Source: Gammaproteobacteria bacterium
GTDB lineage: Bacteria > Pseudomonadota > Gammaproteobacteria > UBA4575
Assembly: GCA_965243395.1 (NCBI GenBank)
Contig: CBDEUS010000002.1
Location: 32,001 to 96,000 of the forward strand
Reading direction: 5' to 3'
Length of the DNA: 64,000 nucleotides
Shown here: positions 18,737 through 30,694 of the stretch, one piece after another
Numbering within the stretch: the stretch's first letter is position 1
How the letters are laid out: each line of letters opens with the position of its first letter
Made by a program: the position numbers and the translations under genes
The notes under the pieces: generated by a model
Database searches by the model: none
The model's input: only the letters and a program-made list of their open reading frames with translations
What the model was told of the DNA's origin: nothing

Positions 18737-19259
18737 CTTGTTAATAAATTTTATTAATAGAAAATATAAGATTTACGTGAATACCTGCAGTTTCAATCAT
18801 TAATGTTAATAGCTGAACAATAAACAAACTAAATACTGCTAAGACATCGAAAAGATATCACTTAAAAATTAGTGTTATTCGATATCCGAGAGTTAATGCT
18901 TTTAAATCAAGAGATTATTGACTATTTATGTCATAAATAAATATTTTCAGCTTCATAAATAGATATGAATTCGCTTATGAAGAACATTTAAAACTATTAT
19001 CAAGAGGCATCTACTTATCATGCATAATAAATATGTGTTATCGGTCTATGCCCTTCTTAAAATAATTTTATTCAAGAACACCGTATTGCCGATAAGTTTT
19101 TTAAACCCAAGATATAAGTAGATTGGCGGTTTAAACACAATAAGAAAATCGATAGATTAGAAGTGCAGATAAACTGCACCACTTAAATTATAAAAGCAAA
19201 AAACGATTAGCATACGCCACGTAAGTTAATTGGGACGTGCTATAGACGAGGGGTTATCA

Positions 19260-19799
19260 ATGAAAGCTAATTATTATCTTTCTCCTACTTTAAAAAGTAC
19301 GCATCAAATTTCAGATGATTTACATGAGGTTGGTATAAATGATTGGTTTATACATGTCATCAGTAAAGATGAATCTGGACTCAATAAAGAACATGTACAT
19401 TCTAGTAATTACTTAGAAACACTAGATGTTCTTCGTAATGGTGGTATTGGAGGTTTGATTGGTTTCATCATTGGTGTATTCGCGGCAGGCGCACTTATGT
19501 TTTTTAAACCCTTTGGACCTAATATGCCTGAATACGTGTACCTGATTGTGATTGTATTATTTACTTTATTTGGGATTTGGGAAGGCGGTTTAGCCGGTGT
19601 AGCGTGTGAGAATAAAAAACTCGCTAAGTTTCATGATGAATTAGAAGAAGGGAAATATTTAATCCTTATCTATACTGGTAAAAACCAGGAGGATGTAGTT
19701 AACGAAATGATGGTTCGCAAACATCCTGAAGCGCAATTAGTTGCAACGGATACTCAGTACTTCAACCCCTTCAGCCAGTTAAAAAGATTAGAAAGCTAA
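19260..19799 (+). CDS. Two-TM membrane protein (DUF1269-like), first gene of the oxidase cluster
   Basis: GAGG SD before ATG 19260; Gly-rich hydrophobic hairpin GGIGGLIG...GIWEGGLAG. Confidence 0.7.
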   Translation: MKANYYLSPTLKSTHQISDDLHEVGINDWFIHVISKDESGLNKEHVHSSNYLETLDVLRNGGIGGLIGFIIGVFAAGALMFFKPFGPNMPEYVYLIVIVLFTLFGIWEGGLAGVACENKKLAKFHDELEEGKYLILIYTGKNQEDVVNEMMVRKHPEAQLVATDTQYFNPFSQLKRLES

Positions 19800-19841: not shown

Positions 19842-20735
19842 GTGAACGCAACCTTAACAGCAACTAGAAATGTTTTAAGTGATTTTGTTGAGATCTGCAA
19901 ACCTCGTATTGCATTATTAGTTTTGGTAACCACTTTTTCAGGAATGTGGTTAGCAAGTAGTGCCAACTTATCCTTTGATCTTATCTTCTTAACTTTACTC
20001 GGAACTGGACTGGCTTCGGCGGCAAGTGGAGCATTTAATAATTATGTTGATCGCGAAGTAGATAAACTTATGGCGCGTACGCGCACTCGTGCCCTACCCT
20101 GCTCACGTCTACACCCTCAACAAGCTTTATGGTTGGGCGTAATGTTAAGTCTGTGGTCATTCGCAATTCTTTTCTATTTAGTCAATCCACTGACTGCTTT
20201 TTTAGTTCAAGCAACTACATTTTTTTATGTTGTGATCTACACCATGTGGTTGAAACGCACGTCTCCACTGTGTACTGAAGTTGGTGGCGTTGCCGGTGCG
20301 ATGCCACCCGTAATTGGCTGGGCTGCAGTAACCAATGAAATTGCATGGCCCGCACTAGTGATGTTTTTAATAATGTTTATTTGGCAACCTCCACATTTTT
20401 GGGCATTAGCATTATTGCGAAAAGATGAGTATCGAAAAGCAAATTTACCGATGTTGCCCGTAGTTAGCGGTGATCGCGCCACTAAAATTCGAATGTTGCT
20501 TTATACCATCGCCTTAGTGCCAGCAAGCTTAGCGATGTACTACTTAGATCTAGTTGGACCTACTTATTTAGTTTTAGCGTTAATACTAGGCATTGCATAT
20601 TTGGTTTTAACTATAGACTTTGCACGCAAACCGATTACACATAAAAGCACTCGAAAATTATTTGGGTTTTCGATTTTGTACTTATTAGGTTTATTCACAT
20701 TAATTTTTATTGATTGCCAATGTTATGTTGGATAG
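19842..20735 (+). CDS. ctaB: Heme O synthase (protoheme IX farnesyltransferase), copy 1
   Basis: KPRI, NNYVDREVDKLMARTRTR, YTMWLKR, WQPPHFWAL, EYRKA..PMLP. Confidence 0.94.
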   Translation: MNATLTATRNVLSDFVEICKPRIALLVLVTTFSGMWLASSANLSFDLIFLTLLGTGLASAASGAFNNYVDREVDKLMARTRTRALPCSRLHPQQALWLGVMLSLWSFAILFYLVNPLTAFLVQATTFFYVVIYTMWLKRTSPLCTEVGGVAGAMPPVIGWAAVTNEIAWPALVMFLIMFIWQPPHFWALALLRKDEYRKANLPMLPVVSGDRATKIRMLLYTIALVPASLAMYYLDLVGPTYLVLALILGIAYLVLTIDFARKPITHKSTRKLFGFSILYLLGLFTLIFIDCQCYVG

Positions 20736-20792: not shown

Positions 20793-22151
20793 ATGGCTGT
20801 TGCCATTATTTTAATATTACTTGTTGTCGGATCTGTAATTTTCCATTTTATGAGCCCGTGGTATTTCACGGAACTTGCTTCTAATTGGGGTGCAATTGAC
20901 ACCACAGTGACGATCACTTTTGTTGTGTGCGGAATTGTATTCGTGTTAGCCAATTTATTTATGGCGTATTGCATAATTAAGTTTCGCAATAAGAGTAAAG
21001 ATCAACGCGCGGCCTACGAACCAGAAAATAAGAAACTTGAAGCATGGTTAACTGTGATCACAACAATAGGTGTAGTCGCGATGCTTGCTCCGGGCCTTGT
21101 GGTTTGGGCAAAATTTGTATCCCCGCCTGTTGATGCCAACATTGTTGAAGCAGTAGGACAACAATGGCAATGGAGTTTTCGCTTACCCGGCAAGGATCAG
21201 CGCTTAGGCACAGTGGATGCCAAAAAAATAAGCATCGATAATCCATTTGGAATGAATGCAGATGATCCATATGGACAGGACGACATTTTAATTCCAGGAA
21301 ATGAACTACACATACCGCTCAACCAAGCCGTTAAATTTAACCTACGTTCCAAAGACGTTTTACATAATTTCACCGTTCCACAATTTCGCGTAAAAATGGA
21401 TTTGGTTCCTGGCATGGTGACATGGCAGTGGCTAACACCAACACGTGTAGGTGAATTTGAAATACTTTGTGAAGAACTTTGCGGCATTGGTCACCACACA
21501 ATGCGTGGCAAAGTGGTTGTTGACGAAGAAAAAGATTATCAAGCATGGTTATCGCAACAGAAAACCTATGCCCAATTCCTAGCTGAAAAAGAAATTCATG
21601 CCGATGTCGCTGCGGGCAAAGCACTTTATCAAGTTTGTGCTTCGTGCCATGGGCTAGAAGGTGAAGGTAATCCTGCTCTCAATTCTCCTAAGATCAGTGG
21701 TCAAGAGACTTGGTACCTTAAAAGACAGTTAGGGTATTTCAAACACGGGATTCGTGGCAGTGATCCTAATGATACCTATGGTGCACAAATGGCACCCATG
21801 GCAGCAACGCTTGTTGATGATGCTGCAATGAACAACATAGCGGCCTACATACAAACTCTTCCCGACAACCCCGCACCTCAAACTATTAAAGGTGATGCTG
21901 AAAAAGGCAAAAGACTTTATGTCACTTGTGGTAAATGTCATGGCAAGAGTGCTGAAGGTAGATGGGCCGTTAATGCACCGCGGATAAAGGGCATGAGCGA
22001 TTGGTATTTGCTCACTCAACTTCAAAACTTTAAACAAGGATTACGTGGTGCACATCCTGGCGATGTCACGGGTAGGCAGATGGAATCTATGGTGCTGAGT
22101 TTAAGTGATGAAAAAATGCATGATGTGATTGCATACATTAATTCTTTATAA
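20793..22151 (+). CDS. coxB: Heme-copper oxidase subunit II (CuA) with two fused C-terminal cytochrome c domains (CoxM-like)
   Basis: DVLHNF and CEELCGIGHHTM CuA ligands; heme c motifs CASCH and CGKCH. Confidence 0.95.
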   Translation: MAVAIILILLVVGSVIFHFMSPWYFTELASNWGAIDTTVTITFVVCGIVFVLANLFMAYCIIKFRNKSKDQRAAYEPENKKLEAWLTVITTIGVVAMLAPGLVVWAKFVSPPVDANIVEAVGQQWQWSFRLPGKDQRLGTVDAKKISIDNPFGMNADDPYGQDDILIPGNELHIPLNQAVKFNLRSKDVLHNFTVPQFRVKMDLVPGMVTWQWLTPTRVGEFEILCEELCGIGHHTMRGKVVVDEEKDYQAWLSQQKTYAQFLAEKEIHADVAAGKALYQVCASCHGLEGEGNPALNSPKISGQETWYLKRQLGYFKHGIRGSDPNDTYGAQMAPMAATLVDDAAMNNIAAYIQTLPDNPAPQTIKGDAEKGKRLYVTCGKCHGKSAEGRWAVNAPRIKGMSDWYLLTQLQNFKQGLRGAHPGDVTGRQMESMVLSLSDEKMHDVIAYINSL

Positions 22152-22195: not shown

Positions 22196-23941
22196 ATGGC
22201 ACACGTTGCACTCGCCGACGAAGGTCAAGCGCTTCATCATCCTAAAACGTGGATTGGAACCTACGTATGGAGCCAAGATCATAAAGTAATAGGCATTCAA
22301 TACATATTAACTGCAACTGCAGTAGGTGTAGTCGCGCTCGTGCTATCCGGCATGATGCGTTTACAACTGGGTTTCCCAGGGGTATTTGATTTAATTCAAC
22401 CGGATGAATATTACCAAGCCGTGACTATGCACGGCATGATCATGATTGTATTCATGCTTACGGCATTTTTCCTGGGTGGTTTTGGCAACATACTGGTGCC
22501 GTTAATGTGCGGAGCTCGGGATATGGCCTTTCCGTATATGAATATGCTCAGCTATTGGGTGTATTTATTATCTGTAATTGTTGTATGTGCAAGTTTCTTT
22601 GTACCCGAAGGTCCTACTGGAGCAGGTTGGACACTCTACCCGCCTCAAGCTGTCACGGAAGGTACAGCCGGTGCCGACTGGGGAATTGTTTGTATGACGG
22701 TGTCTTTGGGTTTATTCGTTGTCGCGTTCACTATGGGCGGTTTGAACTACGTGACGACTGCATTTCAGGCTCGTACACGCGGTATGACTCTTATGCGTAT
22801 GCCTTTGTCAGTATGGGGCATCATCATGGCAACAATTTTAGGTCTGCTTGCATTTCCTGCTTTGTTAGTAAGCGTAATTATGATGACGCTAGACAAAATG
22901 TTAGGTACAAGCTTTTTTATCCCCGCAATTTCTTCCTTAGGTGAAAACCTAAGTCATGAAGGTGGTAGCCCGATTTTATTCCAACACTTGTTCTGGTTCT
23001 TTGGGCATCCCGAAGTGTACATTGTTGCATTACCTGCTTTCGGTATCGTTTCTGACTTGGTCAGTACTCATGCGCGTAAAAATATATTTGGTTTCCGCAT
23101 GATGGTATGGGCTTTAGTTGCGATTGGTGGTTTAAGTTTCATTGTATGGGCACACCATATGTACGTCAGTGGTATGAACCCGTATTTCGGATTTTTCTTT
23201 GCCACAACAACATTAATTATTGCGGTTCCGACGGCGATCAAAGTCTATAACTGGGTGCTGACGTTGTGGCAAGGCAACATTCATTTGAATGTGCCGATGT
23301 TATTTGCCATTGGCTTTATCTTTACCTTTATTCATGGCGGCATCACGGGTTTATTCCTCGGTAATGTGGTTGTAGACGTTCCTCTGTCTGATACCTATTT
23401 TGTAGTGGGACACTTTCATATGGTCATGGGAGTATCACCGTTCTTAGTTGTATTTGGTGGAATTTATCACTGGTTTCCGTTGCTCACTGGACGCATGTTG
23501 AATGACACCATGGGCAAGATTCACTTCTGGATGACCTTCTTAGGCACCTATGCCATTTACTTACCAATGCACTACATTGGCATTTTAGGTGTACCACGTC
23601 GTTACTTTGCCAATGGTTCGACAGAATTCTTACCTGAATCTGTTCAGACAGCGAATGTGAGCATTACGATTGCTGCATTAGTTGTAGGTACGGCGCAATT
23701 CTTATTCTTGGTTAACATCTTCTGGAGCATCTTCAAAGGCAAGCGAGCAGAAAAGAACCCTTGGCGTGCCACCTCACTGGAATGGCAAACACCGGACATG
23801 CCTCCTAAACATGGTAACTGGGGACCAGAACTTCCTGTAGTCCATCGTTGGGCATATTCCTACAGTGTTCCAGGCGCACGTGAAGACTTCATTCCGCAAA
23901 CGGAAGAACCAAGTGAAAATACTAAAGGTGATGTGCACTAG
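22196..23941 (+). CDS. coxA: Heme-copper oxidase subunit I, A1 type (CoxN-like)
   Basis: QDHK D-channel, TMHG, WFFGHPEVY, WAHHM, IAVPTAIK K-channel, HFHM. Confidence 0.96.
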   Translation: MAHVALADEGQALHHPKTWIGTYVWSQDHKVIGIQYILTATAVGVVALVLSGMMRLQLGFPGVFDLIQPDEYYQAVTMHGMIMIVFMLTAFFLGGFGNILVPLMCGARDMAFPYMNMLSYWVYLLSVIVVCASFFVPEGPTGAGWTLYPPQAVTEGTAGADWGIVCMTVSLGLFVVAFTMGGLNYVTTAFQARTRGMTLMRMPLSVWGIIMATILGLLAFPALLVSVIMMTLDKMLGTSFFIPAISSLGENLSHEGGSPILFQHLFWFFGHPEVYIVALPAFGIVSDLVSTHARKNIFGFRMMVWALVAIGGLSFIVWAHHMYVSGMNPYFGFFFATTTLIIAVPTAIKVYNWVLTLWQGNIHLNVPMLFAIGFIFTFIHGGITGLFLGNVVVDVPLSDTYFVVGHFHMVMGVSPFLVVFGGIYHWFPLLTGRMLNDTMGKIHFWMTFLGTYAIYLPMHYIGILGVPRRYFANGSTEFLPESVQTANVSITIAALVVGTAQFLFLVNIFWSIFKGKRAEKNPWRATSLEWQTPDMPPKHGNWGPELPVVHRWAYSYSVPGAREDFIPQTEEPSENTKGDVH

Positions 23942-23943
23942 TC

Positions 23944-24609
23944 ATGACCGCAACACTCATCTTTCTAGCAGTAATAATGGGCGGAGTCGTAATATGGCTC
24001 ATTCGCCAAACGATCAATGTGCAACCCTGGGCTGAAGAAGGGCCAATAGGTCAACATCATGCGGGAGGCGCATTTTCTATTCCTGCTGCAAAAATTGGTT
24101 TAGTTGTATTTCTTGCGGTAGCAAGCTCGTTATTTTCATTATTTATCAGTGCTTACTTTCAACGCATGGAGTATGGAGACTGGACACCATTACCTGAACC
24201 AGGTTTGTTGTGGATAAACACTGGCATGCTTGTTCTGGCCAGTGTGTTCTTTCAACGCGCACGTAATGCTGCAATTAAAAGTTTAGCTAGAAATGTGAAA
24301 TCGAATTTAATGATTGCAGGTTTATTTACTTTTGCATTTATTGCTAGCCAGCTGTGGGTCTGGAAAGGACTACACGATGCAGGCTTTTTCTTAACCAGCA
24401 ATCCTGCCAATTCGTTCTTTTATGTGCTTACCGCCATTCATGCTTTACATATCTTGGGTGGTTTGTGGGTATGGAGTAAATCGGTTTTCAAACTTCAAAC
24501 TAATGCTGAAGTTCACAAAGTTCGTATGAGTGTCGAACTATGCGCAATTTACTGGCACTTTTTATTACTAGTTTGGTTAGTGCTATTTGCACTACTGTTA
24601 TCAACCTAA
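23944..24609 (+). CDS. Cytochrome c oxidase subunit III family (CoxO-like)
   Basis: FFYVLTAIHALHILGG, YWHFLLLVW. Confidence 0.9.
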   Translation: MTATLIFLAVIMGGVVIWLIRQTINVQPWAEEGPIGQHHAGGAFSIPAAKIGLVVFLAVASSLFSLFISAYFQRMEYGDWTPLPEPGLLWINTGMLVLASVFFQRARNAAIKSLARNVKSNLMIAGLFTFAFIASQLWVWKGLHDAGFFLTSNPANSFFYVLTAIHALHILGGLWVWSKSVFKLQTNAEVHKVRMSVELCAIYWHFLLLVWLVLFALLLST

Positions 24610-24632: not shown

Positions 24633-25307
24633 ATGTCAAGTTCAGGACAAGTCACAGATCAAGGTGTAGTGAATGATCTGGTAGACGATTGGGCAGAAGA
24701 AAAAGAAGTCTTTAAGGTTCATTGGGGCAAAGCCATGATGTGGATCTTTCTGTTAAGTGACACATTTATTTTTACTTCATTCCTTACCGGTTATATGAAA
24801 GTTCGTGCGAGCTCTACGATCCCATGGCCAAATGCAAGCGAGATCTTTGCGTTGAGTTTTGGTGGAGACCCTATTCCATTAATCTTGATTGCGATCATGA
24901 CATTTGTACTTATTACCAGTAGTGGCACGATGGCGCTTGCGGTGAACTATGGTTACCGTCGAGACCGTGGGAAAACAGCAACGCTATTATTTATAACTGC
25001 CGCCTTCGGACTTTTATTTGTTGGCATGCAAGCATTTGAGTGGACCAAGCTTATTGTTGATGAAGGCGTACGTCCCTGGGGTAATCCATTTGGTGCACCA
25101 CAGTTTGGTGCCTGCTTTTTTATGATTACGGGATTTCACGGGGCTCATGTATCAGGTGGTGTCATCTACCTAACCTACGTTGCCATTGGCGTGCTCAATG
25201 GTCGCTATGAGAAAAAAGGCTATGACATTGTTGAGATATGTGGCCTGTATTGGCACTTCGTGGATTTGGTTTGGGTATTTATTTTTGCATTCTTTTATCT
25301 TTGGTGA
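24633..25307 (+). CDS. Cytochrome c oxidase subunit III family (CoxP-like)
   Basis: MWIFLLSD, FFMITGFHGAHV, GLYWHFVDLVW. Confidence 0.92.
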   Translation: MSSSGQVTDQGVVNDLVDDWAEEKEVFKVHWGKAMMWIFLLSDTFIFTSFLTGYMKVRASSTIPWPNASEIFALSFGGDPIPLILIAIMTFVLITSSGTMALAVNYGYRRDRGKTATLLFITAAFGLLFVGMQAFEWTKLIVDEGVRPWGNPFGAPQFGACFFMITGFHGAHVSGGVIYLTYVAIGVLNGRYEKKGYDIVEICGLYWHFVDLVWVFIFAFFYLW

Positions 25308-25316
25308 GGTATAACC

Positions 25317-25682
25317 ATGTCAGCATCAAAATCAGGACACCAAGAACATCCTCTTAGCATTTATCTTTGGATTTGGGTCTTATTGTTCGTGCTTAGCACA
25401 TTTTCTTATATGGTAGATTATTACCAGCTACAAGGTGCCTTGCGCTGGAACCTCATCATCATCTTTATGATGCTAAAAGCAGGTTTCATTGTTGCAATCT
25501 TCATGCATATGACCTGGGAGCGCATCACCTTGATCACCGCTATCTTGGTACCTCCGCTATGCCTGCTGGTTTTAATAGTGTTGATGTCAATTGAAGGTCA
25601 ATACACACATAAGTCTAGAGCTACTTTCTTTGGCCTCGAAGAAGCGCCCGTTGTTGAACATCATGGCGAGAAGAGTCATTAA
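25317..25682 (+). CDS. Cytochrome c oxidase subunit IV family
   Basis: Three TM helices, KAGFIVAIFMHMTWE. Confidence 0.88.
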   Translation: MSASKSGHQEHPLSIYLWIWVLLFVLSTFSYMVDYYQLQGALRWNLIIIFMMLKAGFIVAIFMHMTWERITLITAILVPPLCLLVLIVLMSIEGQYTHKSRATFFGLEEAPVVEHHGEKSH

Positions 25683-25762: not shown

Positions 25763-26371
25763 ATAATTCGCCCTTTCCGTAATATTCTCATTTGCTACAT
25801 CTGTAGCATCTTTATTTGCACAAATGCATTTGCGCATGGGGGCGTGTTTCTTGAAGATGATATTTGTGTTATTCAAATTGATTTCTTTCAAGCACATTTC
25901 ACAATCTATCAACCTCAAATCACTCAGCATGAGGAATTTTGTGAGGATATTCCTGAAATTGGAGATACAATTTTTGTAATGGAATATCTACATGATGGCT
26001 TAAGAGAAATGCCCATAGATTTTCGCATTATCAAAGACACACAAAAGTTAGGGCGTTTTGCAAAATTAGAAGACGTTGAGAAAATCGAAAATCTCGATTC
26101 ACATACTGTTCTTTATCAACCCCCGCAAACCGGACCTGATGGCATCTACTTAGCCAAGTACGACTTCTTGGAAGAAGGCTATTACATTGGTATTGTAAGT
26201 GCTGAACGATTGAGCGATGGAATGGTCTACACGGCTGTATTCCCTTTTCAAGTTGGTAGCAATAGTTGGGGATATATACCTTTAATAATTATTATTGCTA
26301 TCTTTTTACAACTTAATTACTGGCTAATGAGCGGAGGTTTTGCGCGTTTACGCAAAATATTTTCATCATGA
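25763..26371 (+). CDS. PmoD/AmoD-like periplasmic copper-binding protein with C-terminal TM anchor
   Basis: In-frame signal peptide ending AFA|HGG upstream of GTG 25844; C..., YQP, EEFCEDIP.G.TI, RI, G.YIGIV, FPFQVG, C-terminal TM, all recalled PmoD/AmoD hallmarks; start codon uncertain. Confidence 0.72.
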   Translation: MIRPFRNILICYICSIFICTNAFAHGGVFLEDDICVIQIDFFQAHFTIYQPQITQHEEFCEDIPEIGDTIFVMEYLHDGLREMPIDFRIIKDTQKLGRFAKLEDVEKIENLDSHTVLYQPPQTGPDGIYLAKYDFLEEGYYIGIVSAERLSDGMVYTAVFPFQVGSNSWGYIPLIIIIAIFLQLNYWLMSGGFARLRKIFSS

Positions 26372-26763
26372 AATTTGCAAATATCATAGTTCTATTATTC
26401 GTAAGTTTTTCTGTTTTGGCTAATACCAATATAGAAGCTACCAAGGAATCAAATAATCAACTATTTAAAGTTAGTTTTATAAGCAAAGCAGATCCAATCA
26501 AAATTAATAAAATACATACATGGATTATTCATATCGAAGACATAAATGGTAACAATATCGAAGATGCAACTATTACTGTAGATGGTGGTATGCCGGCACA
26601 TGACCATGGGCTCCCTACACAACCACAAATAACAAAGCATTTAGGTGATGGCCGCTATTTACTCGAAGGTATGAAATTCCATATGTTGGGATACTGGACC
26701 GTAACCATATCTATTTCCCATGGCAACCTAAGCGATGAAGTAACTTTTGAATTAAATTTTTAA
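26368..26763 (+). CDS. YtkA/FixH-like secreted Ig-fold protein
   Basis: Signal peptide; GGMPAHDHGLP, G.YLLEG.KFHM.G.W; ATGA overlap with the upstream gene. Confidence 0.8.
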   Translation: MKFANIIVLLFVSFSVLANTNIEATKESNNQLFKVSFISKADPIKINKIHTWIIHIEDINGNNIEDATITVDGGMPAHDHGLPTQPQITKHLGDGRYLLEGMKFHMLGYWTVTISISHGNLSDEVTFELNF

Positions 26764-26772
26764 ACTTGATTC

Positions 26773-28056
26773 ATGAGTTTTATAAACCTTCCCAGAATCC
26801 AATACATCATTTTTGCTCTAGTTATTTTATTAGTTGCTTATTGGCTAGTATCAAATAAAAATTCTAAAATCGATTGGTCTGCAGAAGAAATAAAAGTTTT
26901 AAATACTTTATCTTTAGACAGCATAGATAAACTACCTAAAAGTCACAGCAATATCGTTGCTGATAATCCTGCTGCTGCAGAATTAGGTTGGTTGCTCTTT
27001 TTTGACGAGCGCTTGAGTCATAACGGCAAAGTTTCCTGTGCAACCTGCCATATTCCGGAACTTAAATTCACTGACGGCTTAAAAACTGCAGCGGGTGCCC
27101 AAGCAGGTTTACGCAATACCAATACACTAATTGGTGTTGCATACAGTCCTTGGCAATTTTGGGATGGACGCAAAGATAGCCTGTGGTCACAAGCATTATC
27201 ACCTTTGGAAAATGAATTGGAGCATGCAGGCACGCGAACACAATTTATTCATATCATTTCCAATGATGAAAATTACAAAAAAAAGTATCAACATTTGTTT
27301 GGACCGTTGCCTGATTTTTCAGACCCAACTCGTTTCCCCAAGTCTGCTGGCCCTATTAACAATAAAAATATTAATCAAGCTTGGCAAAAAATGGCAAGTG
27401 AAGATAAAAATTTGGTTACCAATGTATTTGTGAATATCGCGAAAGTAATTGAAGCATATGAACGACTACTGCTTCCAGGTCGAAGTAGATTTGACGATTA
27501 TGTACAGGGTGTAGTTGAAAATAATACTGAAAAATTAACTGCACTCTCCAAAGATGAAGCTCGAGGACTAAAATTATTCATTGGCAAAGCACAATGTATT
27601 AATTGTCATAACGGGCCTTTGTTTACCAATAATGAATTTCATAATACCGCTATACTTTCCCCTACTCGTCAACTGCCGAGCATAGGTAGAGTTGAAGGTG
27701 TCCGTAAAGTATTTGATGATCCGTTTAACTGTCTAGGACAACATAGTGATGCAGAAAAAAATCAATGCGCTGACTTACGCTTTGCAAAATCAGGGGACGA
27801 ATTAATTGGCGCCCACAAAGTGCCCACGCTAAGAAATGTCGTGGAAACAGCCCCCTATATGTATGCTGGACAATTAGAAACGCTTGAAGAAGTAATTGAA
27901 CATTACGATAGCGCACCGCTGGCAATGATTGGCCATAATGAAAGTAAACCACTTGAACTAAGTAACAAAGAAAAAAAACAACTCGAGCTATTTTTATCTA
28001 GCTTATCTAGCCCATTAGCCACAGATCCTAAGTGGCTTAAAAACCCTCATTTATGA
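26773..28056 (+). CDS. Di-heme cytochrome c peroxidase / MauG-MbnH superfamily protein, N-terminally anchored
   Basis: LFFDERLS..GKVSCATCH, QFWDGR, CINCHNGP, KVPTLRNV..TAPYM. Confidence 0.9.
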   Translation: MSFINLPRIQYIIFALVILLVAYWLVSNKNSKIDWSAEEIKVLNTLSLDSIDKLPKSHSNIVADNPAAAELGWLLFFDERLSHNGKVSCATCHIPELKFTDGLKTAAGAQAGLRNTNTLIGVAYSPWQFWDGRKDSLWSQALSPLENELEHAGTRTQFIHIISNDENYKKKYQHLFGPLPDFSDPTRFPKSAGPINNKNINQAWQKMASEDKNLVTNVFVNIAKVIEAYERLLLPGRSRFDDYVQGVVENNTEKLTALSKDEARGLKLFIGKAQCINCHNGPLFTNNEFHNTAILSPTRQLPSIGRVEGVRKVFDDPFNCLGQHSDAEKNQCADLRFAKSGDELIGAHKVPTLRNVVETAPYMYAGQLETLEEVIEHYDSAPLAMIGHNESKPLELSNKEKKQLELFLSSLSSPLATDPKWLKNPHL

Positions 28057-28215: not shown

Positions 28216-29112
28216 TTGAACGCCACTATTACTGCGGTTCGCACACAAGCAAGTGACTTTTTTGAACTGTGTAAACCACGAATTGCTTTACTGGTCTTAC
28301 TTACCACTTTTACGGGTATGTGGTTAGCTGGCGGCGGTTCTGTACCACTTGAACTAGTTATTTATACTTTACTTGGAACCGGTCTTGCCTCTGCTTCGAG
28401 CGGCGCATTAAATAACTATGTAGATCGTGAAGTAGATAAGCTGATGGCACGCACACGTACACGCGCCTTACCTTCAGCTAGGCTTTTCCCACAACAAGCG
28501 CTATGGCTGGGAGGATTATTAAGCATTTCATCTTTTGTAATCCTGTTTTATTTAGTTAACCCACTAACAGCTTATTTGGCATTGGGCACAACATTTTTCT
28601 ATGTAGTGATCTATACCATCTGGCTGAAACGTATCACGCCATTGTGCACAGAAATCGGCGGTGTAGCAGGTGCACTTCCTCCTGTGATTGGTTGGGCGGC
28701 AGTCACCAACGATATAAGTTGGCAAGCCATGGTAATGTTTATCATCATGTTTATATGGCAGCCGCCACACTTTTGGGCTTTAGCATTATTGCGGGCTGAA
28801 GAATATCGACGTGCGAAATTACCTATGCTGCCAGTCGTAAGTGGTATGGAAATTACTAAATTTCGAATGCTGTTATATACCATCGTACTCATTCCTATAA
28901 GTACAATGATGTTTTGGCTTAACTTAACAGGGCCTGTCTATTTAACTGCAGCATTAGTACTTGGCGCAATTTACTTATTTATCACTATTGATTTTGCGCG
29001 CAAACCAATCACCCACCAAAGCACTAAACGATTGTTTGGCTATTCAATAATATATTTATGCGGCTTATTTGTATTTATTTTTGCAGATTGTCAATGTAAT
29101 TCTGCGCTGTAA
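28216..29112 (+). CDS. ctaB: Heme O synthase, copy 2
   Basis: Same motifs as copy 1 (NNYVDREVDKLMARTRTRALP, WQPPHFWALALLR); GGAG SD, TTG start. Confidence 0.93.
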   Translation: MNATITAVRTQASDFFELCKPRIALLVLLTTFTGMWLAGGGSVPLELVIYTLLGTGLASASSGALNNYVDREVDKLMARTRTRALPSARLFPQQALWLGGLLSISSFVILFYLVNPLTAYLALGTTFFYVVIYTIWLKRITPLCTEIGGVAGALPPVIGWAAVTNDISWQAMVMFIIMFIWQPPHFWALALLRAEEYRRAKLPMLPVVSGMEITKFRMLLYTIVLIPISTMMFWLNLTGPVYLTAALVLGAIYLFITIDFARKPITHQSTKRLFGYSIIYLCGLFVFIFADCQCNSAL

Positions 29113-29645: not shown

Positions 29646-30398
29646 TTAGCCCTGATCATATAATTCACACGGACTGCGTAGCTCATCCGGAATATTGGGT
29701 GGACATATTCCACATACCTCGTTACCTGGTACCGCAAAATCAATTTTTTTAGGATAAGGTAAATCCAAGTCATTCATAATTTTTACAAACTGCTCTTTAG
29801 GCATACCATTTCCTAAACGTGGATTACGCGCTTTTTCCTGTGCAATGCTGCTTACATGACGACCGGCATAATCATGTGCTGGATATACCAAGGTTTCTCC
29901 AGGCAAGGAAAATAATTTTTCTTGAATGCTTTCATATAATTGACCCGCATCGCCTGATTGAAAGTCAGTGCGACCACATGCATCAATTAATAATGCATCT
30001 CCGGTAAATACCATTTGCTGAGACCCTTGTTTGATTAAATACGCATAATGATGGTCAGTATGCCCGGGTGTAAACAAGGGATGTAATTGTATTGAGCCTA
30101 TTTTAAATACCTGGCCTTCTTCGGCGTATAAATCTGCGCAAGGAAGTTGTGTTTGTTTTGGATAAACAATTTCACATTGAGTTATTGCCTTAAGCTTAGT
30201 TGCACTGGTTAGATGATCAGCGTGTATATGTGTATCGATTGTATAATTTAACTTTAAACCCAATGTCTGAAGCACGTCCAAATCACGTTCCACTGTTTCC
30301 AAAACAGGGTCAATTAAAGCGACCTGACCCTGTTCTGGGCAAGCAATCAAATACGTATATGTTGAAGAACTACTCTCAAATAACTGACGAAAAATCAT
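29646..30398 (-). CDS. Persulfide dioxygenase (ETHE1/Sdo-like, metallo-beta-lactamase fold)
   Basis: MIFRQLFE..SSTYTYL, THIHADH, TPGHT, GDALLI..CGRTDFQ, YPAHDY, AVPGNEVCG. Confidence 0.88.
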   Translation of the reverse strand: MIFRQLFESSSSTYTYLIACPEQGQVALIDPVLETVERDLDVLQTLGLKLNYTIDTHIHADHLTSATKLKAITQCEIVYPKQTQLPCADLYAEEGQVFKIGSIQLHPLFTPGHTDHHYAYLIKQGSQQMVFTGDALLIDACGRTDFQSGDAGQLYESIQEKLFSLPGETLVYPAHDYAGRHVSSIAQEKARNPRLGNGMPKEQFVKIMNDLDLPYPKKIDFAVPGNEVCGICPPNIPDELRSPCELYDQG

Positions 30399-30406
30399 TT
30401 TAAATT

Positions 30407-30694
30407 TTATCCATGTGCGATTGGTTTATCTGTAAAAAGAAAATCTTTTAACTCATTATCAAATGTTGGATCTTGCCTACGAATCCATTCTAATACCATA
30501 GCTGCATGCTCTTTCTCCTCGTCACGATTATGGGCGAGAATAGCTTTTAGGTCTTTATCCTTACATGCATCCACGCGTTGGTTATACCAATCAACAGCCT
30601 CAAGCTCTTCCATCAAGGAAGTAATCGCTCTATGCATATCTCGCGTTTCATCCGATAATTCATCTATTGGTTCATGATAACCTTCATTTGCCAT
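30407..30694 (-). CDS. Encapsulin-type ferritin-like protein (EncFtn/Flp) lacking a targeting peptide
   Basis: HEP..ELS..TRDMHRAI.SLMEELEAVDWYNQR...HNRDEEKEHAAM.LEWIRR.D; GAGG SD. Confidence 0.9.
   Translation of the reverse strand: MANEGYHEPIDELSDETRDMHRAITSLMEELEAVDWYNQRVDACKDKDLKAILAHNRDEEKEHAAMVLEWIRRQDPTFDNELKDFLFTDKPIAHG

Follow-up and report, generated by a model that had tools for sequence, protein, structure and literature searches.

The 64,000-nucleotide stretch of gammaproteobacterial DNA analysed here (the window) carries, at 25763-28056 and all on the + strand, three consecutive genes for a PmoD-family protein, a YtkA-family protein and a di-heme enzyme. This trio belongs to a clade of PmoD proteins from genomes without a copper membrane monooxygenase, and the three-protein unit is real and conserved. 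Its function is best explained as a membrane-tethered periplasmic copper-oxidising and hand-off unit, with the neighbouring respiratory oxidase as its likeliest client in the bacterial family to which the genome belongs; the probability of this reading is put at about 40%. The parts of the reading differ in strength: the trio is very probably one functional unit and probably handles copper, and the oxidase is a tentative client, with the odds slightly against it. The three genes are the following:

25763..26371, + strand: gene 1, PmoD/AmoD-family protein of the Cx9H class (phmmer, Foldseek, conservation and hydropathy)
26368..26763, + strand: gene 2, YtkA-family periplasmic protein with the CrdA fold (PF13115, structure model and conservation)
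26773..28056, + strand: gene 3, di-heme enzyme of the cytochrome c peroxidase (CCP)/MauG superfamily, in an unnamed subfamily (PF03150 and alignment)

The genes are tightly coupled, as a preliminary description of this DNA had pointed out, with an ATGA overlap between genes 1 and 2 and a 9-bp gap between genes 2 and 3. The motifs that it named in gene 1 are all present in the translation, and its assignment of the protein to the PmoD family is borne out by a phmmer match to 6CPD (E 3.6e-15) and a Foldseek match to the same structure (6cpd, E 8.7e-13, template modelling score to the target 0.86). The structure model has a predicted local distance difference test score (pLDDT) of 88, and the next Foldseek match reaches only 2e-4. 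Gene 1 encodes a signal peptide, the residues Cys35, His45, His56, Cys60 and His77, and a C-terminal membrane helix seen in the hydropathy profile; His25 is the predicted first residue of the mature protein. The homolog search found 1,268 sequences, and conservation was counted in the 120 closest. Cys35, His45 and Cys60 are invariant in all 120, His77 is kept in 119, and His25 is present in 111/111 ungapped rows. The two invariant Cys residues, the N-terminal signal and the C-terminal membrane helix are the features by which the PmoD family has been delimited (PMC6189053). No Pfam or NCBIfam model matches gene 1, and a protein atlas search returned only clusters named 'hypothetical protein', plus one 96% YtkA cluster of 326 amino acids.

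Gene 1 lacks the methionine of a CuA site. Eight residues after the first Cys it carries Gln43, and the Met is missing in the 120 closest homologs, which mostly have Lys, Ser, Gln or Thr at this position. According to the study of the family (PMC6189053), the Cx9H class of PmoD binds copper yet forms no CuA. Without the Met ligand, gene 1 would therefore not form a PmoD-type CuA, and the step of the preliminary description that relied on a CuA-like site fails. The CuA-forming kind of PmoD (Cx7MxHxnC) was ruled out both by the motif and by the lack of a copper membrane monooxygenase in the genome. No blue-copper motif was seen in the conserved residues of gene 1.

The reading frame of gene 1 opens only 26 codons ahead of His25. 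Translation likely starts at a non-AUG codon, ATA 25763, because there is no ATG, GTG or TTG before the signal peptide and the two closest relatives (L008, L009) have retained the ATA. The lister of open reading frames (ORFs) places the start at GTG 25844, dropping the signal peptide and His25. Gene callers make the same cut; several database entries of 169-175 amino acids lack the signal peptide and the first His. The usual start codon is likewise absent from the PmoD genes of L010 and L080.

The preliminary description had noted no pmo or amo genes in the window, and this extends to the whole genome (100% complete, two contigs), in which PmoA, PmoB and PmoC are unmatched; three control sets of the monooxygenase searches were positive, and one gave no match. 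AmoC occurs in 0/79 PmoD-bearing genomes of the family and of the Woeseiaceae. A gene 1 homolog is carried by 17 of the 401 genomes sampled from the class, and the 14 weaker-scoring ones all have PmoB (one of these, G039, enters this tally only). PmoB was not found in G135, in G336 or in any of the 12 genomes from which L008-L019 derive. In a quick tree of 138 PmoD rows, 117 fall into one clade (Shimodaira–Hasegawa-like approximate likelihood ratio test, SH-aLRT, 99), and the nearest outside rows come from pmo/amo operons; the absence of a monooxygenase holds for the genome-derived rows only. His77 marks the clade, being present in 116/117 rows inside and 0/21 outside.

Gene 2 is assigned to the YtkA family by PF13115 (48.4 bits, cut-off 25.9) together with its conserved His and Met residues. 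Its model (pLDDT 95) matches 9ll2 in Foldseek (E 3.6e-7) and superposes on Helicobacter pylori CrdA with a Z score of 15.0 and a root-mean-square deviation of 1.8 over 103 residues, the next Z being 9.4. Three His, two Met and two Trp (His50, Trp52, Met75, His78, His80, Met106 and Trp110) are kept in 48/48 homologs, and a fourth His in 47. YtkA domains have been described as aiding CuA assembly in Bacillus subtilis (PMC9145763, PMC13344008).

Gene 3 matches PF03150 with 143.3 bits and has an N-terminal membrane anchor, CxxCH motifs at 89 and 275 and an invariant pair, Cys320 and Cys332. Its Tyr378, invariant in 36/36 homologs, aligns with position 294 of MauG and with Met258 of 1IQC, a classical peroxidase in which this Met is a ligand of heme 2. 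In the alignment gene 3 thus appears to carry the hallmark of Tyr/His di-heme enzymes, a Tyr at the ligand position of heme 2; Tyr294 of MauG is named as an axial ligand in a reference title in PMC6405878. With Tyr378 in place of the Met ligand, a classical bacterial cytochrome c peroxidase was rejected. The preliminary description had likened gene 3 to MbnH, a membership that the score does not allow (TIGR04039, 149.5 bits against a cut-off of 362.85). The MauG model gives 130.6 bits (TIGR03791, cut-off 443.85), the score for the His-Xaa-Ser enzymes also stays under its curated cut-off, and an MbnH-MbnP pair was discarded because the neighbours of gene 3 are YtkA and PmoD and the WxW motif is absent.

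The position of Tyr378 raises the possibility that gene 3 acts in maturation, oxidising a partner residue once (Trp52 or Trp110 of YtkA, or His56 of PmoD) in the manner of MauG and MbnH and so finishing a copper site. Both Trp residues are invariant in the YtkA homologs, MbnH has been reported to convert a Trp of MbnP to kynurenine at a copper site (PMC11951088), YtkA-diheme fusions exist without PmoD, and the predicted docking site of PmoD is the heme-2 domain, as described below. However, the soluble part of PmoD has no invariant Trp, gene 3 falls under the MbnH cut-off and gene 2 lacks the WxW motif. Moreover, the same PmoD core (Cys35, His45, Cys60 and His77) pairs elsewhere with a multicopper oxidase, with no adjacent di-heme gene. 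Such a maturation role appears rather unlikely, and it is compatible with the copper-oxidising unit, since the two can go together.

The view of the trio as one functional unit is supported because PmoD-YtkA and YtkA-diheme fusions occur and a PmoD-diheme complex is predicted. Among 150 listed cluster representatives, of which the 15 long ones were scanned, there are 11 PmoD-YtkA fusions, and 12 of the 28 adjacent PmoD-YtkA pairs in Woeseiaceae lie in one frame. The genome itself holds a separate YtkA-diheme single ORF of 521 amino acids without PmoD (C1:864003-865565; L025:9004-10566, - strand). A further 12 YtkA matches in Woeseiaceae, in frames of 530-631 amino acids, are read as YtkA-diheme fusions by their length only; neither PmoD nor an oxidase of the type found in the window is present in 10 of these genomes. 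In the family, the di-heme gene adjoins PmoD in 31/35 genomes.

Some further arrangements were observed around these genes. The YtkA-diheme ORF of the genome lies downstream of rhodanese, DUF6969 and sulphur-transport genes. One PmoD homolog (P0270) is fused to a CopC domain via the same two-helix linker as in the YtkA fusions, and genes of the DUF2282, MbnB/TglH/ChrH and DUF2063 families lie about 1.2 kb 3' of the trio in G135 (L057:4135-6134).

PmoD is predicted to bind gene 3. In the three-chain prediction this pair scores 0.74, against 0.00 for the best of three controls; the runs agree in 100% of contacts and the partner pLDDT is at least 84. The mark used for the complex score is reached by 116/157 solved and 2/215 mismatched pairs, and is only rough for a three-chain job with custom alignments. 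The predicted contacts of PmoD fall on the heme-2 domain of gene 3 (residues 293-308, 341-345 and 382-387) and involve the loop directly after Tyr378. His56 of PmoD, which lies in the predicted interface, is present in 50/51 trio-type PmoDs and in 0/66 others, and the three positions that best separate the trio type from the others (56, 132 and 128) are all located there. In five gene 3 homologs away from PmoD, the interface residues are kept at 0.33, compared with 0.74 for other conserved positions. No direct PmoD-YtkA contact is named in the complex prediction, and a control with YtkA in which gene 3 was replaced scored 0.00, which is no evidence against binding.

In classical peroxidases, electron donors bind at the heme-2 domain. 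The predicted docking would hence also suit electron transfer, in which the membrane-anchored PmoD would donate to the peroxidase or to a multicopper oxidase and H2O2 or O2 would be removed, the operon being shared with the oxidase since both are needed under the same conditions. The cupredoxin fold of PmoD (PMC6189053) points in this direction, as do the blue cupredoxin motif of the alternative module described below and BthA, a Tyr/His di-heme enzyme reported to turn over H2O2 with an outside donor (PMC6405878). However, gene 1 has neither the CuA ligand set nor a blue-copper motif that could be seen in its conserved residues, and neither the CrdA fold of gene 2 nor its set of invariant His and Met residues would be explained. 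Electron transfer as the function of the trio is accordingly considered unlikely.

Evidence for the copper-oxidising unit comes from the exchange of the oxidant. In a metagenome survey that kept 80 of 535 PmoD loci, 33 hold the trio, YtkA lies at the end of the contig in three, a multicopper oxidase accompanies PmoD in 17, and the other 27 show neither. Among Woeseiaceae, YtkA is adjacent in 28 of the 45 genomes with PmoD, and a multicopper oxidase is adjacent in 16/16 others examined (the remaining one was left out). A small protein with the blue-copper His/Cys/His/Met pattern is also encoded at 15 of these 16 loci. The best solved relatives of the alternative multicopper oxidase are two-domain enzymes, and its best match in the genome under study is only 23%. 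The block of PmoD, multicopper oxidase and cupredoxin directly follows pmoB in five monooxygenase genomes (L059-L063), and both partner versions occur after oxidase subunit IV. As PmoD pairs with either of two periplasmic oxidants, a copper-oxidising unit is the best explanation. The genes after PmoD at L059-L063, and also at L070, likewise from a monooxygenase genome, encode a two-domain multicopper oxidase and a blue cupredoxin that has a membrane anchor and an N-terminus rich in His and Met.

In the proposed mechanism, gene 2 would collect Cu(I), and gene 3, activated by peroxide, would take an electron from copper held on PmoD. The candidate ligands are the N-terminal His25, His45, His77 and the Cys pair, with His56 at the interface. 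The oxidised copper would then be handed on to membrane copper enzymes. In other lineages, the two-domain multicopper oxidase with the blue cupredoxin may act as an oxidant using O2, a version that is also found in pmo/amo operons. The ccaa3-type oxidase would be served by the trio as a helper beside Sco and PCuAC, not as an obligate replacement for them.

This oxidase is encoded beside the trio, which sits between the end of the subunit IV gene (25682) and the start of the second heme O synthase gene (28216). The cluster lies on one strand and consists of a membrane-protein gene, two heme O synthases, a five-gene heme-copper oxidase and the trio. The genes other than the trio are:

19230..19799, + strand: two-helix membrane protein with no Pfam family, first gene of the operon
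19842..20735, + strand: heme O synthase, first copy (TIGR01473, 330 bits, cut-off 210)
20793..22151, + strand: oxidase subunit II (ccaa3/CoxM-like), with a complete CuA motif and, at the C-terminus, two c-heme motifs
22196..23941, + strand: oxidase subunit I with the motifs HPEVYI, WAHH and HFH
23944-24609 and 24633-25307, + strand: oxidase subunit III, two genes
25317-25682, + strand: oxidase subunit IV
28216..29112, + strand: second heme O synthase, sharing 73% identity with the first copy

A promoter scan of the cluster gave no more than chance would (26, with 33.3 expected), and the cluster contains no strong terminator. The membrane gene at 19230-19799 travels with the operon and stays beside the trio in G422, a genome that has lost the oxidase; weak homologs of its product are encoded just 3' of PmoD in L153 and in the pmo/amo operon of L066. 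Beyond the cluster, an encapsulated-ferritin-like gene (30407-30694) adjoins a metallo-beta-lactamase gene (29646-30398), presumably persulfide dioxygenase-like, and a metallo-beta-lactamase gene follows the cluster in relatives as well.

A link between the trio and this oxidase is apparent in the family (56 genomes). PmoD is present in each of the 33 genomes with the window-type oxidase (same contig in 29, split in four), and 21/21 genomes without PmoD also lack the oxidase. Furthermore, PmoD adjoins subunit IV in no fewer than three separate PmoD subclades; it follows subunit IV with the multicopper partner as well (L155, L157 and L158) and in a distant subclade (L152 and L153).

The preliminary description had gone further, proposing an alternative copper acquisition and insertion module for the oxidase. 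In its strong form this would be a dedicated CuA or CuB delivery system with a CuA-like PmoD that replaces Sco, PCuAC and CtaG. It was correct that Sco, PCuAC, CtaG, Surf1 and CtaA are missing locally, with none matched in the 20 ORFs around the cluster; the argument drawn from this fails because all five are encoded elsewhere in the genome. CtaG, Surf1, a Sco-like gene and CtaA belong to a second oxidase operon, of the canonical type, and further Sco genes and PCuAC are also present. Replacement would fit the co-occurrence in the family and the finding of CtaG in 0/9 family genomes having only the window-type oxidase. It would also fit G415 (99% complete, one contig), whose sole oxidase is of the window type; CtaG and PCuAC are absent from this genome, Sco has no strong match in it, and CtaA adjoins the trio. 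Nevertheless, Sco-family matches occur in 4/4 and PCuAC in 3/4 of the single-oxidase genomes tested, and gene 1 has no Met ligand for a PmoD-type CuA. PmoD as a substitute for CtaG was rejected, as no complementary pattern is seen in Woeseiaceae, where, in addition, 14 of the 55 genomes with the window-type oxidase do without PmoD. Dedicated replacement is thus very improbable.

Two other neighbourhoods involve Sco genes. At L168, L169 and L171, the window-type and canonical oxidase operons face each other with a Sco gene, the PmoD module being elsewhere. The genome under study has, at C1:657-663 kb (L001, L003, L006 and L026), an SBP56 gene with a Sco-like gene and a further MauG-like gene, and formyltransferase (FTR) genes alongside; SBP56 is presumably methanethiol oxidase-like, and would be another copper enzyme of this genome that needs loading.

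Several observations weigh against the proposed unit and its client. The match between PmoD and oxidase in the family is that of a single cassette, acquired or lost as a whole. Oxidase genes are found at only 5/33 trio loci of the metagenome survey, with none at 19 of the 23 that have at least 1.5 kb upstream. In G422 (91% complete) every oxidase subunit gene is gone, together with the first heme O synthase, and the trio is kept; the deletion is clean, the membrane gene, trio and second synthase remaining in order (L160, G422:C138:20000-30500). G423 (96% complete) also lacks the window-type oxidase. The 101 Woeseiaceae genomes, in which the genes are not adjacent, divide into 41 with PmoD and the oxidase, four with PmoD only, 14 with the oxidase only and 42 with neither. 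Besides the 14 exceptions, this co-occurrence fails a control for kinship, with a sign-test median p of 0.29 over nine independent pairs (4.9 the same way, 1.3 opposite and 2.8 with no difference); the control took 86 of the 101 genomes; the rows of G467, G525 and G538 were long or mis-extracted, and G544 had a default label. PmoD is present in 8/12 Woeseiaceae oxidase genomes without CtaG compared with 33/43 of those bearing it. PmoD also commonly stands without either partner next to it (22 rows in the context comparison), and the p-values for interface conservation are overstated because related sequences are not independent.

Service to the oxidase, as first suggested, therefore stands in part: the tie in the family and the adjacency to subunit IV speak for it, while the 19 loci, G422 and the kinship control oppose a dedicated role. 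The neighbourhood survey gives the same division, with co-occurrence in the family that is not obligate elsewhere.

The same distribution bears on copper tolerance, in which the trio would bind and oxidise toxic periplasmic Cu(I) without any role in oxidase assembly, and its place in the operon would reflect co-regulation or inheritance. The trio is mostly unlinked to the oxidase outside the family and outlives its loss in G422, the closest fold of gene 2 is that of a copper resistance determinant, and the alternative partner is a multicopper oxidase. However, no copper efflux family recurs among the annotated neighbour clusters (19 representatives), and PmoD comes after subunit IV with both sets of partners, as well as in several subclades. 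Copper tolerance alone is considered improbable.

A broader extension of the copper-oxidising unit is speculative and rather unlikely. PmoDs could be general copper-loading adaptors for membrane copper enzymes, always working with an oxidant partner; one clade would have left the pmo/amo operon for the ccaa3-type oxidase and, in some lineages, swapped the multicopper oxidase for a PmoD-binding di-heme subfamily. If this extension is true, it would represent a peroxide-driven copper loading of a respiratory oxidase that could do without CtaG and PCuAC, as in G415. In any case, a large monooxygenase-free PmoD clade with two exchangeable oxidant partners makes the function testable in bacteria independently of the particulate methane and ammonia monooxygenases, and the unnamed MauG-like subfamily gains a predicted partner.

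So far, PmoD has been regarded as a specific trait of bacteria that oxidise methane or ammonia. The main text of PMC6189053 (Fisher et al. 2018) states that all PmoDs come from monooxygenase species (98.5% of 860 in its methods), a specificity repeated in a 2026 review (PMC13058606); the discussion of the former and the review both describe the role of PmoD/AmoD as open. Supplementary Data 2 of the 2018 study nonetheless contains rows with 'Species contains CuMMO = 0' (CuMMO, copper membrane monooxygenase), labelled 'Neighborhood Cu genes: none'. It lists PmoD-YtkA fusions in a Woeseiaceae bin and in JGI_02_L16 (subunit I at -3), PmoD with YtkA in the named strain Pseudohongiella spirulinae KCTC 32221, and, in RIFCSPLOWO2_02_FULL_56_15, subunit I (-4), subunit IV (-1), PmoD, YtkA (+1) and peroxidase (+2). 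The word 'peroxidase' is absent from the main text of that study. The module was called undescribed at the outset, which holds for the two main texts searched and does not hold for this supplement, where the same gene order is tabulated without comment. No account of the trio module was found in the literature searched, mostly outside subscription journals and with the 2018 supplementary PDF not covered. What is new is the predicted partnership of PmoD with the unnamed MauG-like subfamily.

Compared with known systems, gene 1 resembles the Cx9HxnC class of PmoD/AmoD (6CPD; PMC6189053) in sequence, fold, signal peptide and the two invariant Cys, and also in the N-terminal His, the His at the second ligand place and the C-terminal membrane helix. 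Unlike known PmoD/AmoD proteins, it comes from a genome with no CuMMO, has the clade-specific His77 and the trio-specific His56, and is partnered by YtkA and a di-heme enzyme, with fused forms in existence.

Gene 2 shares PF13115, the CrdA fold and conserved His and Met residues with YtkA/CtaK of B. subtilis and CrdA of H. pylori (9LL2), the latter having no HxH motif in the stretch aligned to gene 2. It differs from CtaK as described in lacking a lipoprotein Cys and a His-rich tail, and from YtkA/CtaK in being coupled or fused to a di-heme enzyme. Gene 3 is similar to MbnH, MauG and BthA in its two CxxCH motifs and in the Tyr at the MauG 294 position; like MbnH it adjoins a small copper-type partner, and like BthA as reported (PMC6405878) it has a conserved Cys pair in its C-terminal part. 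In contrast to MbnH and MauG, its partner is YtkA/PmoD instead of MbnP or methylamine dehydrogenase, and it has an N-terminal membrane anchor.

Finally, a subunit II with c-heme motifs is the CoxM layout of the ccaa3/CoxMNOP oxidases (PMC5492768). The operon of the window corresponds to these oxidases in its subunit II with CuA and two c-heme motifs and in its two subunit III genes, the name resting on gene layout and not on comparison with a named CoxN sequence; unlike them, it adds two heme O synthases and the trio.

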